DNA from: an uncultured Blautia sp.
GTDB taxonomy: Bacteria > Bacillota > Clostridia > Lachnospirales > Lachnospiraceae
Reading direction: 5' to 3'
DNA: 64,000 nucleotides
NCBI GenBank assembly: GCA_946622645.1
Contig: CAMOQF010000002.1
Span: forward strand, 190-64,189
Shown: positions 18,572 to 60,990 of the stretch, in pieces
Position numbering within the stretch: the first letter of the stretch is position 1
Layout of the letters: every line of letters begins with the position of its first letter
Notes under the pieces: generated by a model
Told to the model about the DNA's origin: nothing
The model's database searches: none
Seen by the model: the letters and a program-made list of their open reading frames with translations, nothing else
Made by a program: the position numbers and the translations under genes

Positions 18572-18638
18572 ATGTCACGCCGCAGGCAGCAGGGCTTTGC
18601 CCGGTCTCTGCCCGCGGGAACAAAGGGAGGACTCTGCC

Positions 18639-19889
18639 ATGAAAAAACCGGAGCTTCTGGTGCCGGCGGGCAGTCTGGAGGTCCTGAAGATCGCCGTGCT
18701 CTACGGAGCGGACGCCGTCTATATCGGCGGGGACGCCTACGGCCTGCGGGCCAAGGCCCGCAACTTTTCTCCCGCCGAGATGAGAGAAGGGATCCGTTTC
18801 GCCCACGAGCATGGCGCAAAAGTCCATGTGACCGTCAACATCCTGGCCCACAACCGGGACCTGGAGGGAGTGGCGGCCTATCTGCAGGAGCTGAAAACGC
18901 TTGCTCCTGACGCGCTGATCATCGCGGATCCGGGCGTCTTTACGCTGGCAAGGCAGATCTGCCCGGAGATCGAGATCCATATCAGCACCCAGGCAAATAA
19001 TACCAATTATGAGACCTGCCTGTTCTGGCACAGCCTCGGAGCCAGAAGGATCGTGATGGCCCGGGAGCTTACGCTCTCCGAGATCCGGGAGATCCGTGAA
19101 AAAGTTCCGGATTCCCTGCAGATCGAAGCCTTTATCCACGGCGCCATGTGCATCTCTTATTCCGGCAGATGTCTTCTCAGCAATTATCTGGCCGGACGGG
19201 ACGCCAACCAGGGAGAATGCACCCACCCCTGCCGCTGGAAATATGCGGTGGTGGAGGAGACGCGCCCCGGTGAATACATGCCCGTGGAGGAGAACGAGCG
19301 CGGCACCTTTATCTTTAATTCCAAGGATCTCTGCATGGTCGACCACATGGAGGATATCCTTTCGGCCGGGATCGACAGCCTGAAGATCGAAGGCCGCATG
19401 AAGACGGCCCTCTACGTCGCGACCGTAGCGCGCACTTACCGCAAGGCGATCGACGAGGCGGCGCAGGATCCTTCGCTCTATCACGCGCACATGGACTGGT
19501 ATCTGGAACAGATCGCCTGCTGCACCAACCGGCAGTTTACCACCGGCTTCTTCTACGGAAAACCGGACCGGGAAAGCCAGATCTATGACAGCAGCACTTA
19601 TATCAAAGACTATGTATATCTGGGGTATGTGGAGGAGGTCCGTCCGGACGGGCTCGTCCGCATCACCCAGCGGAATAAATTCAGTACGGGAGAGACCATC
19701 GAGATCATGAAGCCGGACGGACGCAACGTTGCTGTCCGGGTGCGGTCGATCCATGATCCGGACGGCCGGGAGATGGAGAGCGCTCCCCACGCGCAGCAGA
19801 CCCTGTATGTGGATCTGGGAGCAGACGTCTGTATGTATGATATCCTCCGCCGGAATGACGGCGGCATGGAGGAAGGAAAACAAAGTTGA
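18639..19889 (+). CDS. U32 family protein (TrhP-like tRNA hydroxylation)
   Basis: KPELLVPAG, GADAVYIG, HGAMCISYSGRCLLS, CTHPCRW, LKIEGRMK. Confidence 0.9.
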   Translation: MKKPELLVPAGSLEVLKIAVLYGADAVYIGGDAYGLRAKARNFSPAEMREGIRFAHEHGAKVHVTVNILAHNRDLEGVAAYLQELKTLAPDALIIADPGVFTLARQICPEIEIHISTQANNTNYETCLFWHSLGARRIVMARELTLSEIREIREKVPDSLQIEAFIHGAMCISYSGRCLLSNYLAGRDANQGECTHPCRWKYAVVEETRPGEYMPVEENERGTFIFNSKDLCMVDHMEDILSAGIDSLKIEGRMKTALYVATVARTYRKAIDEAAQDPSLYHAHMDWYLEQIACCTNRQFTTGFFYGKPDRESQIYDSSTYIKDYVYLGYVEEVRPDGLVRITQRNKFSTGETIEIMKPDGRNVAVRVRSIHDPDGREMESAPHAQQTLYVDLGADVCMYDILRRNDGGMEEGKQS

Positions 19890-22800
19890 AAAGAACGATC
19901 GAAGAACTTTGCAGCGGAAAACATGAATATGACGTTCCTGCGCTGATGTTTTCACAGGAAAAGATCGAGGTGACGCTTCCTCCGGGACAGACGACCCAGC
20001 GGGAGCTCTACATCGGTACGGAATCGGACCACCGCATCAGAGGCTATGTGACTTCTTCGGACCGCCGCCTGGTGCCCGGGCTTGAAAGCTTTTCCGGGAC
20101 GACCATCCGCCTTCCCTTCGGGGTCGACGCGGTAGGCCTGCCGAACGGGGAGGTCCGGGAGGAGTGGCTCTGCTTTACCACCAATCTGGGCGAATACCGG
20201 ATCCCGGTCACCATCCGTACGGAAGCGGAGCAGATGAAGACCGCCGGAGGCGAGATCCGTTCTCTGGACGAGTTTGCCGCGCTGGCATCCCGGAATTTCC
20301 GTGAAGCCTACCGGATGTTTACGGAACCGTCGTTCTATGACCTGATCCATGCCCAGGATGAAAAGACCCGGTCCTTGTACGCCGGTCTTTCCGCCCAGCC
20401 CGTCACATACCAGAACCTGGAAGAGTTCCTGGTGGCCTCCGGCAGGAAGGACAAGGTGGAGGTCCAGCTGGGAGAATACCAGAAGGAGATCTTCGAGATC
20501 CAGGAATCCACCCGGGAAAGCCTTCAGATCACCCGGAGCGGCTGGGGGCATCTGCGGATCGACGCGGTGGTGCGCGGGAGCTTTATCGAGCTCGAAAAAC
20601 GCGTCATCACGGACGAGGATTTTATCGGAAGCACCTACAATCTTTCCTACGTGATCCGGAGAGACAGGCTGGGAGAGGGCAACCAGTTCGGCGAGATCCG
20701 CATCATCACGCCTTACCAGGAGCTGGTATGCCAAGTGACGGCTTCCGCCACCATCCGTTCCAACCTGATGCTCCGTATGGAGGAAAAAAAGAGACGGCTC
20801 AACCTGATGCAGGATTATCTGGACTATCGATGCCAGATGGTGGATACGGCCGCGTGGGCGGCCCAGTCCCATTATGAGCTGAACCGTCTGAAGGACGCCG
20901 GGTTTGATTATCCGGAGTATAAAATGTATGAGGTCTACGTGCTGTGGACCGAGGGAAAAAAGGCGGAGGCCTACGATATCCTGCGGGAATATCACAAGGA
21001 GCCCTTCATCAAGGACGACCCGGAGCTCGCAGGGCTCTATCTGTATCTGGCCTTCGAGGCAGGCATCTACAAAGACTCTGAATCGGTGCTCCGAAGGCTG
21101 ACAGGCCTCTATGTGCAGAATGAAAAGAGCTTTCTGCTGCAGGAGATCCTGCTGCACCTGGATCCGGAGCTGATCCGGGTCCCCTCCAAAGCGCTGTATC
21201 ACCTGGAGGAGATCTTTTCGAAGGGCTGCAAGAATCCTCTGATGTATCTGGAAGCATGGGTGCGGATCTGCATGGACGAGAGTCTTCTGCACAGGATCAC
21301 CCCCTTCTGGATCCAGGTGTTCCTGTTTGCCGGGCGGAGAGGGCTCCTGACGGAAGAGCTGACCATGCGCTTCACCTATCTGTCCGGGTATGAAAAAGAA
21401 TTTTCCGAGTGTCTGTACCGCGCCCTGGTCTACGGGTACGAGGCATATCCGTCGGACGAATCCCTGGAGGCCATCTGCCGCTATATCATGACCGGGAACC
21501 CCAGGAAGAAGGAGTATTTCCGCTGGTTCTCCCTCGCGGTGGAGCGGGACATCCGTCTGACAAGAGTGTTCGAGTATTATATGGAGACTGTGGACACTTC
21601 CTACCACAAAGAGCTGCCCAAGTCTCTTCTGATGTATTTCAACTACAACAACAGCAATCTGGGCGATACCAGAAAGGCATATATCTACGCGGATGTCATT
21701 GCGGGCAAGGATCAGGATCCCAAGACCTACAACAGCTACCGCCAGACCATCACGAGCTTTGCCGCCCAGAAGATCCGCGAGGGCAGGATCAGCGAGGACT
21801 ACGCCATTCTCTATCAGGAGTATCTGCGTAAACCGGAAAACCAGGAGGAGGCCCGTATCCTCTCCGGCATCCTGTTCGCGAACCGTCTGTACTGCGACAA
21901 CCCGCGCGTGCGGTGCGTGATCGTCCGTCACAGCCAGCTCACAAAGGAGGAACTGTATCCCTGCGTGCACGGCGTGGCATATCCGCGGATCTACACGGAG
22001 GACGCGGCTGTCCTGTTCCAGGACGACAAACAGCGCCGGTACAGCGCCACCGTGGATTACAATCTGAAAAAACTGATGGATGACCGCGATCTGGTCCCCG
22101 CGATCATCGAAAAAAGATACACCGAGCCGGGACTCCTTTTAAACTACTGCGAATTACACGAGATCACGTCGGAAAATCTGCCGGTCTTCCAGCAGGTGGT
22201 CCAGTCGGATTCCTTTTCCGAGGACTACCAGATGGAGACCCGCCGGAAGATCCTCCGCTGGTACCGTGAGAACATGAAAGGCGCCGAACTCGACATGCTG
22301 CTGAAGCGGCTGGATCACAGGGAATACGCCCTGGTGGACCGCAAAGCCCTTCTGGAGGTCCTGATCGACCGCGGCATGTTCCGCCAGGCTTATCAGATCG
22401 TGGAGGAGTTCGGCTCCGAGGACGTGAGTCCCTCCGATCTGCTGAAGCTGGTGAGCCGCATGATCATCCGCCTGGAGCTTAAGGAGGACGACGAGCTGAC
22501 GGCTCTTTCCTCCAGGATCTTCCGGGGCGGGCTGTACGACGAGATGATCCTCCGGTATCTCATGCTGTACCGGACGGGCCCCATCGATGAGCTCTTTGAG
22601 ATCCGCCGCTGCGCGGTGGGATTCGATCTGGACACCTATGCGTTCGACGAGAGGATCCTGGGTCTTCTGATGCTGACCACCGACTTCCGGAAGGAAGGCG
22701 AAAAGATCCTGGAAAGCTATGTGAGATCCTCCGGCCGCGAGCAGGTCATCAGCGCCTATCTGACCATGCTCTCTTACGGAGCATTTGTAAAAGACTACAG

Positions 22801-23416
22801 TGTCAGTCCCTTTGTGCGGGAATGCCTGATGACGGTGTATAAAAACGGCTGGGAAGTCGACCAGGTCTGCCATCTTGCCCTTTTCAAGGCCCTCTCCCGG
22901 GAAAAAGATCCGGACGGTCTGTACAAAGATCTCAAGGCGGATCTTCTGAAAGAGTGCATGGACCAGGGCATGCTTTTCGGCTTTTACAAAAAACTGCCGC
23001 AGGACCTTCTGAGCCCCTGGCAGCTGGATGACAAGACCTTTGTGGAATGCCATGCGTCGCCGGGAGCCGTCGTGACTTTGTTTTATCAGCTGGATTCCGG
23101 CATCGGAGAGCCGGACGGCTTTGCTTCGCTGCCGATGACCCAGGTCTATGAAGGGATCTTTGTACGGACCTTCACCCTGTTTTACGGCGAGACGCTGCGT
23201 TATTATTTCGTGACAGAGGAAAAAGGAAAAACGCGGAAGACGCCGGAGCGTGTCCTGACCATGAACCGTGTGGAAGGCAATCCTTCCTCCCGGTATCAGC
23301 TCATCAACCGCATGCTGTCGTCCCGCAAGCTCGGCAAGAAGGACGAGACCCAGAGAGGCCTTAAGGATTACCTCCGTCAGGAGCAGTATGTAAACGAAAT
23401 GTTCGACCTGAAATGA
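19886..23416 (+). CDS. Large hypothetical protein (DUF5717-like), 1176 aa
   Basis: Long ORF with host-like codon usage; TTG start overlaps the U32 stop, after GGAGG. Beta-rich termini and helical middle. Family name is recalled from Lachnospiraceae annotations, not searched. Confidence 0.75.
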   Translation: MKRTIEELCSGKHEYDVPALMFSQEKIEVTLPPGQTTQRELYIGTESDHRIRGYVTSSDRRLVPGLESFSGTTIRLPFGVDAVGLPNGEVREEWLCFTTNLGEYRIPVTIRTEAEQMKTAGGEIRSLDEFAALASRNFREAYRMFTEPSFYDLIHAQDEKTRSLYAGLSAQPVTYQNLEEFLVASGRKDKVEVQLGEYQKEIFEIQESTRESLQITRSGWGHLRIDAVVRGSFIELEKRVITDEDFIGSTYNLSYVIRRDRLGEGNQFGEIRIITPYQELVCQVTASATIRSNLMLRMEEKKRRLNLMQDYLDYRCQMVDTAAWAAQSHYELNRLKDAGFDYPEYKMYEVYVLWTEGKKAEAYDILREYHKEPFIKDDPELAGLYLYLAFEAGIYKDSESVLRRLTGLYVQNEKSFLLQEILLHLDPELIRVPSKALYHLEEIFSKGCKNPLMYLEAWVRICMDESLLHRITPFWIQVFLFAGRRGLLTEELTMRFTYLSGYEKEFSECLYRALVYGYEAYPSDESLEAICRYIMTGNPRKKEYFRWFSLAVERDIRLTRVFEYYMETVDTSYHKELPKSLLMYFNYNNSNLGDTRKAYIYADVIAGKDQDPKTYNSYRQTITSFAAQKIREGRISEDYAILYQEYLRKPENQEEARILSGILFANRLYCDNPRVRCVIVRHSQLTKEELYPCVHGVAYPRIYTEDAAVLFQDDKQRRYSATVDYNLKKLMDDRDLVPAIIEKRYTEPGLLLNYCELHEITSENLPVFQQVVQSDSFSEDYQMETRRKILRWYRENMKGAELDMLLKRLDHREYALVDRKALLEVLIDRGMFRQAYQIVEEFGSEDVSPSDLLKLVSRMIIRLELKEDDELTALSSRIFRGGLYDEMILRYLMLYRTGPIDELFEIRRCAVGFDLDTYAFDERILGLLMLTTDFRKEGEKILESYVRSSGREQVISAYLTMLSYGAFVKDYSVSPFVRECLMTVYKNGWEVDQVCHLALFKALSREKDPDGLYKDLKADLLKECMDQGMLFGFYKKLPQDLLSPWQLDDKTFVECHASPGAVVTLFYQLDSGIGEPDGFASLPMTQVYEGIFVRTFTLFYGETLRYYFVTEEKGKTRKTPERVLTMNRVEGNPSSRYQLINRMLSSRKLGKKDETQRGLKDYLRQEQYVNEMFDLK

Positions 23417-32125: not shown

Positions 32126-32890
32126 ATGATCAAACCAGTCTATGTAAGAAATATGGAGATCGGCACGGGGATCCCGAAGATCTGTGTGCCGCTGACCGGG
32201 AAGAACGATGCGGAGCTGCTGAGCCAGGCCGCCGGGGTCGTGGAAGGCGAAGCCGATTTTGTGGAATGGCGTGTGGACTGCTGGGAGGAGGAACACCCGA
32301 TCTACCGGGTTGAGGAGATGCTTTTTGCCCTCCGTAAGATCCTGCATGAAATGCCGATCCTGCTCACCTTCCGTTCGGAGGAGGAAGGGGGAGAAAGAGC
32401 TGCTTCCCCTGCGGAGCAGGTCGCGCTCATCCGCCGGGCAGCCGACAGCGGACAGCTGGACATGGCGGATGTGGAATACCTGCGCTCTCCGGATGAATTT
32501 GCTCCGCTGATCAGAGACATGGAGGAGAGAGGCGTACGGATCATCGCATCCTCCCATGATTTTGAAAAAACCGGCACGCGGGAAGAGCTGTGTGACAGGC
32601 TGCGGGCTCTGTCTTCTTCCGGCGCCGATATCATAAAGCTTGCCGTGATGCCCGCCTGTCCGGAGGACGTCACCCTTCTGATGGATACGGTGTCCGAAAT
32701 GACAAAGGAAGAGATCACCTGTCCGGTGATCGCCATGTCCATGGGAGAGCTTGGAGCAGAGAGCCGCGTGGAAGGAGAAAAATATGGATCTTCGGTCACA
32801 TTCGGAACCGCGGGAGCATCATCTGCACCGGGGCAGCTGCCCGTCCGGGTCCTTCGTGAAAAGCTGGAAACACTGCACGCCCGGATCTGA
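32126..32890 (+). CDS. aroD: Type I 3-dehydroquinate dehydratase
   Basis: PKICVPL, EWRVD, TFRSEEEGG, SSHDF, KLAVMP, MSMG, SAPGQ; start placed at ATG 32126. Confidence 0.95.
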   Translation: MIKPVYVRNMEIGTGIPKICVPLTGKNDAELLSQAAGVVEGEADFVEWRVDCWEEEHPIYRVEEMLFALRKILHEMPILLTFRSEEEGGERAASPAEQVALIRRAADSGQLDMADVEYLRSPDEFAPLIRDMEERGVRIIASSHDFEKTGTREELCDRLRALSSSGADIIKLAVMPACPEDVTLLMDTVSEMTKEEITCPVIAMSMGELGAESRVEGEKYGSSVTFGTAGASSAPGQLPVRVLREKLETLHARI

Positions 32891-32901: not shown

Positions 32902-32995
32902 TCACGAAGGATCACGAAAGATCGCGAAGACTCACGAAGTTTCACGAATTTCCAGGATCACTCACGATTTTTCCACGAAGATTCACGAGAAAAAA
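32902..32995 (+). repeat. 10-bp-phased array of TCACGAA-like motifs upstream of the sigma factor gene
   Basis: TCACGAA at 32902, 32912, 32932, 32942; TCGCGAA 32922; TCACGAT 32962; CCACGAA 32973; TCACGAG 32983. Confidence 0.9.
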
Positions 32996-33017: not shown

Positions 33018-33046
33018 CATACAAAATAAAACGTCTCCTGTATAAT
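33018..33046 (+). promoter_or_regulatory. Putative sigma-A promoter with perfect -10 and weak -35
   Basis: TATAAT at 33041-33046; the hexamer 17 bp upstream is CATACA (poor -35). Confidence 0.5.
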
Positions 33047-33148
33047 GTGGTGCAGGGCTCAGAAGACCGGATCATATGTCCCGCACATAGGCCGCGGTTC
33101 TTCCTGCCCGGACAACAAAGGTTGTCTTTCATCGGGGAGGTACAGGAG

Positions 33149-33751
33149 ATGAGAACAGATCGTCTGCCGGAGCCGCTCTCCAGGCAGCAGGAAGAGGGAC
33201 TGCTGTTCCTGATGCGGAAGAAGGGGAGTCGGGCAGCCCGGGAAAAACTGATCATCCATAATCTTCGCCTGGTCTATGCCATAGCCTGGGAATACGCCGG
33301 GATCCTTGAACTGGAAGACCTGGTTTCCTGCGGCGTCATCGGCCTGATCAAAGCGGTGGATGCGTACGATGGTTCCCGGAAGGCAGGGCTCGGAAGCTTT
33401 GCCGCGCGCTGCATCCGGAACGAGATCATCTCGGAGCTTCGCAGGATGAAAAGAAACGAGAGAGAAACGCTGGAGGCGATCACGCCGGAGCAGGAGATGA
33501 CGCTCTGGTCTCTGCACAGACATGAGCTGGATCCCCAGAGCATGATCGAAAGATCCGAAGAAAGAGAGGCGCTGTACAAAGCGCTGAAACATCTGGGGAG
33601 AGAGGACCGGCAGCTGCTGAAAAAGCGTTATCTTTCCGCTCAGAAGTGTTCTCAGCAGAAACTGGCGGAACAGACCGGACTTCATCAGTCCAGCATCGCC
33701 CGTCGGGAGATGCGTATTCTCGAAACGCTTCGCAGGCAGCTGCCTTCCTGA
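33149..33751 (+). CDS. Orphan sigma-E/sigma-K-like RNA polymerase sigma factor without pro-sequence
   Basis: LPEPLS, HNLRLVYAIA, EDLVSCGVIGLIKAVD, FAARCIRNEI, SQQKLAEQTGLHQSSIARRE match the sporulation sigE pattern; ATG 33149 follows GGAGG/AGGAG. Confidence 0.85.
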   Translation: MRTDRLPEPLSRQQEEGLLFLMRKKGSRAAREKLIIHNLRLVYAIAWEYAGILELEDLVSCGVIGLIKAVDAYDGSRKAGLGSFAARCIRNEIISELRRMKRNERETLEAITPEQEMTLWSLHRHELDPQSMIERSEEREALYKALKHLGREDRQLLKKRYLSAQKCSQQKLAEQTGLHQSSIARREMRILETLRRQLPS

Positions 33752-33760
33752 AAAAAACCG

Positions 33761-33789
33761 TTTACTTTTACACGACAGAGTGATATTAT
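33761..33789 (+). promoter_or_regulatory. Putative sigma-A promoter of paaK
   Basis: TTTACT, 17 bp, TATTAT with extended -10 TG. Confidence 0.45.
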
Positions 33790-33889: not shown

Positions 33890-35197
33890 ATGGGCAATTA
33901 TTATCAACCGGAAATCGAGACCGCTTCCCGGGAACAGATACGGGCATGGCAGAGCGAAAGGCTCTCCCAACAGATCCGTAACGTGTGGGACAACGTACCC
34001 ATGTACCGTAAAAGAATGGAGGAAGCCGGGCTGACTCCGGACGATATCAAAACCGTGGACGACCTGTCCAGACTGCCGTTTATCACAAAGGATGACCTTC
34101 GGGACGAATATCCCTACGGCCTTCTGGCAAGACCTCTGGCGGACTGTGTCCGTATTCAGTCTACCAGCGGAACGACAGGACGGCGCGTGGTCGCCTTCTA
34201 CACCCAGCATGATGTGGATCTCTGGGAAGAATGCTGCGCAAGAGCCATTGTGGCTGCAGGCGGGACAAAAGAGGACGTGGTACAGGTGTGTTACGGTTAC
34301 GGCCTGTTTACAGGCGGTCCCGGACTGCACGGCGGCTCCCATAAGGTGGGCAGCCTGACGCTTCCTATGTCCTCCGGCAACACGGAGCGGCAGATCCAGT
34401 TCATGACAGACCTGGGCACCACCATTCTTTGCTGTACGCCGTCCTATGCGGCTTATCTGGCAGAGAGCATCCACGAAAGAGGCGTGCGCGACCAGATCAG
34501 GCTGAAGGCAGGCATCTTCGGCGCCGAAGCCTGGACGGAGGAGATGCGCCATGACATCGAAGACAAGCTTGGGCTCAAAGCCTATGACATCTACGGACTG
34601 ACCGAGATCTCCGGCCCCGGCGTTTCCTTTGAGTGCGAAGAACAGAAGGGAATGCACGTGAACGAAGACCACTTCATAGCGGAAGTCATCAATCCCCTGA
34701 CCGGCGAAGTGCTCCCGGACGGTGAAAAAGGCGAGCTCGTATTCACCAGCATCACCAAGGAAGCCTTCCCCCTGATCAGATACCGCACCCGCGATATCTG
34801 CATCCTGTCCCACGAAAAATGTTCCTGCGGCAGGACTCATGTCCGCATGACCAAACCGCTCGGACGCAGCGACGACATGCTGATCGTCAAGGGCGTGAAC
34901 GTGTTCCCGTCCCAGATCGAGACCGTCCTGATCAACAAGGGCTATCCGGCCAACTACCAGATCATCGTGGACCGCGTCAACAACAGCGACACCATCGAGG
35001 TGCAGGTGGAGATGACTCCGGAGATGTTCTCCGACAGCCTGAGCGCCGTTTCCTCGAAGGAGAAAGAGCTGGTGGACGCTCTGAAAGCGATGCTGGGCAT
35101 CTACGCCAAGGTGAAGCTCGTCAACCCGAAGACCATCACCAGGAGCGAGGGAAAAGCCGTCCGCGTCATCGACAAACGAAACCTGTACAAGGGCTGA
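33890..35197 (+). CDS. paaK: Phenylacetate-CoA ligase family protein
   Basis: LPFITKDDLRD, IQSTSGTTG, YGYGLFTGG, DIYGLTE, RYRTRD, GRSDDMLIVKGVNVFPSQIE. Confidence 0.9.
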   Translation: MGNYYQPEIETASREQIRAWQSERLSQQIRNVWDNVPMYRKRMEEAGLTPDDIKTVDDLSRLPFITKDDLRDEYPYGLLARPLADCVRIQSTSGTTGRRVVAFYTQHDVDLWEECCARAIVAAGGTKEDVVQVCYGYGLFTGGPGLHGGSHKVGSLTLPMSSGNTERQIQFMTDLGTTILCCTPSYAAYLAESIHERGVRDQIRLKAGIFGAEAWTEEMRHDIEDKLGLKAYDIYGLTEISGPGVSFECEEQKGMHVNEDHFIAEVINPLTGEVLPDGEKGELVFTSITKEAFPLIRYRTRDICILSHEKCSCGRTHVRMTKPLGRSDDMLIVKGVNVFPSQIETVLINKGYPANYQIIVDRVNNSDTIEVQVEMTPEMFSDSLSAVSSKEKELVDALKAMLGIYAKVKLVNPKTITRSEGKAVRVIDKRNLYKG

Positions 35198-60351: not shown

Positions 60352-60990
60352 ATGAATAAGATCAATGTCGCTGTCGTCTCCGGACGGGAGCTGAAACCTG
60401 ATGACCTGCTGCTCCGGATGATCCGGGAGGACGGCTCGCTCTACTATGTGGGCACCGTTTCCAATGAGGATGAAGTGAAAAACCTGATGGAGCTCGATCC
60501 GCCCGACATGCTTCTGTTTTCTTCCATCGTACCGAAACTCTGGCGGCGCGACGGACGGCTGTTTTCCAGCGCGCAGAATCTGACCGGGACCCGCTACAGC
60601 ATCCCGGGGAGCGCGCTTCCGCTCCGCGAAGAAAACCTGGAGCTGATCGTCAGCAACATCCTGCACGAGCTGGGGGTGCCCACCCACATCAGCGGTTTCG
60701 GTTTTATCCGCGACGCCGTGATCCTGGCCGTCTATGACCAGGGGCAGCTGGGAAAGATCACGAAGGTCATGTATCCCACCATCGCAAAGAAGAACATGAC
60801 GACGCCCAGCAAGGTGGAACGGGCCATCCGCCATGCCATCGATCTGGCGTGGGAGAGAGGGAGCCTCAAGTATATCGACGAACTCTTCGGAAGCGATCTG
60901 CGGGACAAACGCATCAAACCTACCAATTCGGAATTCATCGCTTTGATCGCGGATAAGATCCGGATGGACTGGAAAAACAGGAAATATTAA
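60352..60990 (+). CDS. spo0A: Spo0A homolog with intact DNA-binding domain and degenerate, truncated receiver
   Basis: C-terminal LHELGVPTHISG, ITKVMYPTIAK, TTPSKVERAIRHAI and KPTNSEFIALIADK are Spo0A_C signatures; located at the canonical position after recN; 212 aa. Confidence 0.9.
   Translation: MNKINVAVVSGRELKPDDLLLRMIREDGSLYYVGTVSNEDEVKNLMELDPPDMLLFSSIVPKLWRRDGRLFSSAQNLTGTRYSIPGSALPLREENLELIVSNILHELGVPTHISGFGFIRDAVILAVYDQGQLGKITKVMYPTIAKKNMTTPSKVERAIRHAIDLAWERGSLKYIDELFGSDLRDKRIKPTNSEFIALIADKIRMDWKNRKY

Follow-up and report, generated by a model that had tools for sequence, protein, structure and literature searches.

A diverged sigE orthologue without pro-peptide and spoIIGA in a Blautia lineage that lost endospore formation

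In Bacillus and Clostridia the sporulation factor sigma-E is encoded in the spoIIGA-sigE operon as pro-sigma-E, and the pro-peptide of about 27 residues is cut by SpoIIGA. The spoIIG promoter of B. subtilis is activated by Spo0A and has as its hallmark an over-long spacer between the -35 and -10 elements. The SigK of Clostridioides difficile naturally lacks a pro-peptide and is controlled through its synthesis instead. In B. subtilis, SigE is kept inactive by its N-terminal 27 residues (PMC10141391); with the first 17 removed, the constructs no longer need SpoIIGA for activity in vivo (PMC10141391 and its reference 60). The pro-less SigK of C. difficile is the topic of a separate study (PMC5025042). 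Gut Firmicutes have lost sporulation many times. This loss is well described (PMC8340488). According to the excerpted text of Galperin et al. (bioRxiv 10.1101/2022.02.25.481979), Spo0A is encoded in 32 of 42 non-spore-forming Clostridia, and the four sporulation sigma genes are present in every spore-former; the same excerpt contains no description of a retained, remodelled sigE in non-sporulating genomes. Our literature search returned neither a description of a natural sigE orthologue persisting without pro-peptide and spoIIGA after sporulation loss nor one of the fate of the compartment-specific sigma factors after such loss.

Here we describe a sigE orthologue that is missing both parts of the activation checkpoint, the pro-peptide and SpoIIGA. 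It lies in a stretch of 64,000 nucleotides (the window) from the metagenome-assembled genome (MAG) of an uncultured Blautia sp. (G000; 2.5 Mb, 186 contigs, 92.9% complete, 4.6% contamination). In total 41 genomes were searched, the window's own and 40 relatives.

The pro-less gene and its slot

The part of the window around the gene carries the following features.

32126 to 32890, forward strand: aroD, a type I 3-dehydroquinase (PF01487, 3e-66), the conserved left flank of the spoIIGA-sigE slot
32902 to 32995, forward strand: array of TCACGAA-type heptamers with 10-bp phasing, a candidate Spo0A binding array upstream of the promoter
33039 to 33046, forward strand: likely -10 element, TGTATAAT; a good -35 hexamer is missing at 16-18 nt
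33047 to 33148, forward strand: 5' leader and no pro-peptide; only in this genome is the frame open from GTG 33047
33134 to 33140, forward strand: Shine-Dalgarno sequence GGGGAGG, 8 nt before ATG 33149 (GAGGAGG in the sister contig L075)
33149 to 33751, forward strand: pro-less, strongly diverged SigE orthologue of 200 aa (from family scores, predicted structure, synteny and dN/dS)
33890 to 35197, forward strand: paaK-like AMP-forming ligase, the conserved right flank, with its own sigma-A-like promoter at 33761-33789

The neighbours named in an earlier, sequence-only reading of this DNA, aroD and paaK, were confirmed as a type I dehydroquinase and an AMP-binding gene of the phenylacetate-CoA-ligase type, the latter followed by an ACT-pair gene. 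The sporulating genome G001 has thrS-aroD-spoIIGA-sigE, with products of 282 aa for spoIIGA and 243 aa, pro-peptide included, for sigE, and the Blautia records L078, L084 and L097 show (aroD-)spoIIGA-sigE-paaK, with aroD-spoIIGA-sigE seen in G001, L078 and L097. The window has aroD-sigma-paaK and spoIIGA is missing from the slot. Since sporulating relatives have aroD-spoIIGA-sigE-paaK, the window gene occupies the sigE slot with spoIIGA deleted. The gene is a positional orthologue and vertical descendant of sigE, in agreement with the SigE-derived factor first proposed. The operon spoIIGA-sigE-sigG named in the sequence-only reading stood in part: spoIIGA-sigE is found in sporulating relatives, but sigG is not beside sigE in G001 and G002.

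As first read, only 5 residues precede LPEPL in the product (N-terminus MRTDR-LPEPLS), versus 35 in pro-sigma-E of the same genus. The stretch of about 27 residues that SpoIIGA removes as pro-peptide is absent. Pfam identified Sigma70_r2 (3.4e-13), with region 4 below threshold only, and the score against the sigma-70 superfamily model TIGR02937 (100.4 bits) exceeded the cut-off of 42.9, as for a two-domain sigma factor. The AlphaFold2 model of the 200-aa protein comprises a predicted sigma-2 domain (about residues 1-103) and a four-helix sigma-4 helix-turn-helix domain (136-197), both at pLDDT 80-95, joined by a disordered linker (104-134) at pLDDT below 50; the top structural matches of the model are sigma factors. 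Alignment with SigE of the same genus bore out two further points of the sequence-only reading. Compared with SigE, about 10 residues are missing between regions 2 and 4, in line with the shortened region 3 noted earlier, and the promoter-reading motifs have drifted (GSFAARCIRNEIISE versus ATYASRCIENEILMY; LHQSSIARRE versus ISQSYISRLE). The gene had also been called an orphan, and among 5.8 billion protein clusters we found a single close homologue, P0002, at 85% identity, the second-best cluster being an ordinary SigE of 235-245 aa at 39% identity. Searches with the 200-aa protein gave no match above 45% identity in a metagenome scan and none above 40% in the genomes of the genus.

In nine non-sporulating genomes of the genus the sigE slot is occupied by a pro-less gene that scores below threshold (G000, G004, G006, G083, G113, G125, G059, G092 and G080; G125 is the same record as L076). 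Eight of these genes adjoin aroD and six of the eight are also flanked by paaK; G083, a short contig, and G059 show part of the slot only. Scores against the SigE model run from 268 bits in G080 down to 88-127 bits, and identity to true SigE over the aligned part is 55% for the G080 gene and about 31% for the window gene. The G080 copy lies directly after thrS, a different deletion endpoint, and is therefore probably an independent event. The motifs CI.NEI..YLR of region 2.4 and SQS..SR of region 4.2 are widely kept in the pro-less genes. The residues between these motifs vary from lineage to lineage, and we take them to align with the sigma-70 positions that contact the upstream end of the -10 element. 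The changed 4.2 helix, HQSSIAR, is found among the pro-less genes only in the window's lineage.

Two of these loci have an organization of their own. In G125 (C8; L076 3160-3735, reverse strand) the pro-less gene is inverted relative to aroD and paaK and encodes 191 aa without the LPxPL N-terminal motif. In G006 (C128; L039 2931-4787) aroD and the sigma gene are separated by an inserted gene for a multi-pass membrane protein of 618 aa, and the 0A boxes of this genome are located between the membrane protein gene and the sigma gene.

Host genome and promoter region

Two further features of the window bear on the host and on the regulation of the gene.

19886 to 19889, no strand assigned: junction of a clean sigK deletion, where the flanking genes overlap
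60352 to 60990, forward strand: spo0A homologue, probable upstream regulator (PF08769 at residues 100-203)

SigE was found above the family cut-off in 35 of the 41 genomes, most of which also have SigK and SigF/G. In G000 the SigE model matched three loci only: the window gene, a 451-aa frame that is probably sigma-A and a 222-aa frame that by eye appears SigH-like. In relatives this model detects SigK (about 200 bits) and SigF/G (about 85 bits), so that SigK and SigF/G would have been seen in G000; the profile search of this 92.9% complete MAG detected no true sigE, sigK, sigF or sigG. The genome search for spoIIGA that the sequence-only reading had proposed gave the same picture. The models for spoIIGA (TIGR02854) and spoIVA (TIGR02836) found neither gene in G000, G004, G006, G113, G083, G080 and G011, and detected both in G001 and G002 and spoIIGA also in G014. 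With spoIVA and the other sporulation sigmas absent and canonical sigma-E promoters not enriched, the gene probably does not direct the early mother-cell regulon (spoIIID, spoIVA, spoIIIA etc.).

Both spoIIGA and sigK are missing through deletion from a contig that is itself intact, and not through gaps in the assembly. Over about 30 kb, from about 2.5 kb to 31 kb of the window, gene order is collinear with the complete genome G002. The sigK of G001 and of G002 is flanked by the orthologues of two window genes, 18597-19889 and 19886-23416. In G001 sigK is alone in that interval; in G002 the interval spans about 9 kb, sigK included. The two window genes themselves overlap by 4 bases; thus sigK was cleanly deleted from its own slot. 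The host is a gut/rumen Blautia-like lineage that lost endospore formation.

Several observations on sporulation genes were made in the relatives. G014 keeps spoIIGA and a full-score sigE, its spoIVA (C2:708252-709685) is riddled with stops and its sigK (C1:630688-631326) has an in-frame TGA; judging from these sequences, the lineage looks like one caught mid-loss of sporulation. At the SigK loci L063-L066 and L073, from sporulating members of the same genus, the stop-to-stop frames are 209-212 aa and start about 7 residues before F-x-K-P-L, so SigK of these relatives seems to lack a pro-peptide, like that of C. difficile. In other families of the order the SigK frames measure 230-251 aa, and several begin with a visibly hydrophobic N-terminus. 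The SigK-type match falls into two halves 5-10 kb apart in G028 (C38, 12921-13217 and 22814-23179) and G038 (C63, 14761-15066 and 19550-19915), from two other families of the order, as expected for a skin-like element in sigK.

A consensus scan found no full sigma-70 promoter upstream of 33149. The -10 element TGTATAAT without a usable -35 suggests that the gene is driven by an activator-dependent sigma-A promoter. The window promoter is without the canonical 0A boxes of its orthologues and has the TCACGAA array in their place; a regular-expression count in 32902-32995 gave five TCACGAA/TCGCGAA heptamers and one TCACGAG. Canonical boxes were present in all four relatives scanned. G004, G113 and G006 have two TTCGACA boxes at a distance of 10 bp, of which the second precedes TATAAT by 21 nt; G004 and G006 have additional forward TGTCGAA boxes, and canonical boxes also lie upstream in G059. 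Upstream of spoIIGA, the sporulating G001 has TGTCGAA, and TTGACA 21 nt before TATAAT; L078 likewise has TGTCGAA, with TTGACA about 22 nt before TATAAT. Spo0A is the likely activator of the window gene. In Pfam the spo0A homologue at 60352-60990 matched only the C-terminal DNA-binding domain, with no receiver-domain match at 1e-5. Upstream of the sigma gene of G080 (C14; L072, reverse-complement position 2221) AGCGAAA repeats are found 10 bp apart and canonical TGTCGAA is not; they may be another respelling of the activator site.

Nine other genomes of the genus without any sporulation sigma match have lost the pro-less gene, so it is dispensable in many non-sporulating lineages. The Spo0A C-terminal domain (Spo0A_C) was found in 21 of 22 genomes, including eight of these nine; retention of Spo0A is therefore independent of the sigma gene, and the idea that Spo0A is kept only where the sigma gene is kept was ruled out. 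A second short frame (112-184 aa; G000:C22:23478-23783), matching only the Spo0A C-terminal domain at 74-105 bits, occurs in nearly every genome of the genus, sporulating and non-sporulating alike.

Origin and maintenance of the gene

We consider it probable that the gene is a processing-independent descendant of sigE, in a lineage that lost sporulation, kept for another regulon. During the loss of endospore formation spoIIGA was deleted from aroD-spoIIGA-sigE-paaK. The N-terminal pro-peptide region of about 30 residues was lost from sigE as well, and the present protein starts at roughly the same point as mature sigma-E. By analogy with truncated SigE, and as the sequence-only reading had proposed, such a protein should need no activation step after its synthesis; it would bind core RNA polymerase at once, and its activity would be set by transcription alone. 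Transcription would start from the TGTATAAT promoter, activated by the receiver-less Spo0A on the heptamer array, and the old link from Spo0A to spoIIG would thereby be kept. Freed from the sporulation regulon, the sigma factor diverged fast, including at the -10-proximal recognition positions. More tentatively, several non-sporulating Blautia might use a two-step switch, in which Spo0A (receiver-less here) turns on a processing-independent sigma-E descendant with lineage-specific specificity, for a new non-sporulation programme such as stationary phase or host adaptation. Lineage-specific specificity enters this reading because the -10-proximal residues vary by lineage and, in the window, both the 4.2 helix and the spelling of the Spo0A boxes have changed.

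That the gene is instead a decaying, functionless leftover of sigE, its frame not yet disabled by mutation, appears unlikely. Such decay would fit the retention by the window's protein of only 55 of the 128 positions invariant in SigE across 17 genera (43%; SigK sequences keep 69-81), the branches of 2-6 substitutions per site for the diverged genes, the loss of the gene in the nine genomes mentioned above and of the remaining cascade, and the scan for canonical sigma-E promoters. In the whole genome the pattern [GT][AC]ATA[AT][AT]-N13-15-CATA...T showed no enrichment (12 matches versus 10 in the mirrored null); the strict form gave 3 matches versus 1, and no regulon was readable. However, the reading frame is intact in all nine genomes with the gene. 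Its start codon is conserved, as is the Shine-Dalgarno sequence, and the motifs for core binding and the helix-turn-helix (NLRLV, GLIKA, CI.NEI and SQS..SR) are retained. Both domains are modelled with confidence. Moreover, two independent pairs gave a dN/dS of 0.14 at dS 0.6-0.7: the window versus L075 (dN 0.084, dS 0.60, dN/dS 0.140), this single sister contig of 1139 bp being the basis of the estimate for the window's lineage, and G006 versus G083 (dN 0.095, dS 0.69, dN/dS 0.138). In the comparison with L075, dN/dS is alike across all four segments of the protein. The gene is thus maintained by purifying selection and therefore probably serves some regulon outside sporulation. Pairs of true SigE from the genus have dN 0.016-0.111, dS 0.88-4.37 and dN/dS 0.018-0.055, and the dN/dS of the window gene is about 7 times that of true SigE (about 0.02). 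This sigE orthologue has diverged faster than the ancient paralogue SigK has, yet under purifying selection.

An origin from sigK, which in this genus appears to be pro-less itself (frames of 209-212 aa in relatives), is very improbable, even though several sequence measures lean to it or do not separate the two. The SigK model NF004471 scored marginally higher than the SigE model NF006158 (114.1 bits, cut-off 252, versus 113.8 bits, cut-off 339), and the best PDB sequence match is a sigma-K fragment. The second SigE equivalog score (NF006158 / TIGR02835 equivalogs) was 107.1 versus a cut-off of 348.6; true SigE of the relatives reaches 349-410 bits against the SigE model. The maximum-likelihood tree separates SigK as a clade (97/90) and groups the diverged genes with SigE (91/88). 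The branches are very long, and the clustering of the diverged genes may in part be long-branch attraction; the AU test did not reject the SigK grouping (p = 0.091). In this phylogeny, which the sequence-only reading had called for, the protein does not group with the unrelated alternative sigma factors that would have spoken against that reading. Sequence by itself does not decide between SigE and SigK, with the model scores tied, the AU test non-significant and the PDB matches non-discriminating; the question is settled by synteny. The gene lies in the spoIIGA-sigE slot, from aroD to paaK, and the sigK slot between the orthologues of the two overlapping genes is empty, which, with the sub-cut-off score, sets the gene outside SigK (NF004471 / TIGR02846). 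In addition, alignment column 259 in region 4.2 is Q in at least 27 of 30 SigE and R in at least 12 of 14 SigK sequences, and the pro-less genes of the alignment have Q in seven of seven, the window gene retaining this SigE-type residue. This position (Q217 in B. subtilis SigE) is presumably the determinant of -35 specificity between SigE and SigK.

Even less credible is a true start at GTG 33047, which would give a 234-aa protein with a novel 34-residue pro-peptide for another protease; the sequence-only reading had named this start as one that would overturn it. The frame is indeed open from 33047 in this genome. However, in the sister contig L075, which shares the ATG and the Shine-Dalgarno sequence, a TGA interrupts the frame within the corresponding stretch. 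The L075 leader is 72% identical to that of the window, the coding sequence showing 85% protein identity. The GTG starts one base after the TATAAT hexamer (33041-33046) and has no Shine-Dalgarno sequence, unlike ATG 33149 with GGGGAGG. Alignment to the SigE and SigK profiles starts only at residue 3-5 of the 200-aa form and at profile positions 34 and 26, respectively, past the pro-peptide, and all eight other pro-less genes are without a long N-terminus. On this comparison the extension is not real. We also considered the leader as a relic of the pro-peptide; its FIGE resembles YIGG of mature SigE, but the spacing differs and L075 reads FLTE, and we regard the resemblance as a coincidence.

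Horizontal acquisition, for example of a phage or mobile-element sigma factor that landed beside aroD, is the least plausible explanation of all, for despite the near lack of close homologues in public data the gene occupies the same slot in nine genomes of the genus, matches its neighbours in GC (0.57) and GC3 (0.68), is flanked by no mobile-element genes and nests in the tree with SigE of the same order.

Comparison with known systems

The natural series from G080 (55%) to the window gene (about 31%) offers a view of how a developmental sigma factor escapes its checkpoint and gains a new job, and the same series can be used to follow the joint change of sigma recognition residues, activator boxes and promoters. 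For annotation and sporulation-prediction tools, a "SigE/SigK-like" match in such genomes is no sign of sporulation.

The closest described system is pro-sigma-E/SpoIIGA, the spoIIGA-sigE operon of Bacillus and Clostridia (NF006158 / TIGR02835), with which the gene shares its slot, the two-domain layout and the Q of region 4.2. Like spoIIG, it has an upstream promoter region with repeats resembling Spo0A boxes. In contrast to pro-sigma-E, the window gene has about 30 fewer N-terminal residues and a linker about 10 residues shorter, scores at a third of the family cut-off and evolves with a dN/dS about 7 times higher, in a genome without spoIIGA and a host without sigF, sigG, sigK and spoIVA. 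Truncated B. subtilis SigE is likewise a sigma-E without its inhibitory pro-sequence and provides the mechanistic precedent for activity without processing; it consists, however, of laboratory constructs in a sporulating organism, whereas the window gene is a natural, much diverged allele that is fixed in non-sporulating lineages. The SigK of C. difficile is also a naturally pro-less mother-cell sigma factor, but a different paralogue and one still used for sporulation. Spo0A of non-spore-forming Clostridia is likewise a sporulation regulator that survives the loss of sporulation, and in the window's lineage, to judge from the locus and its relatives, what was a developmental switch seems to have taken on a different use.
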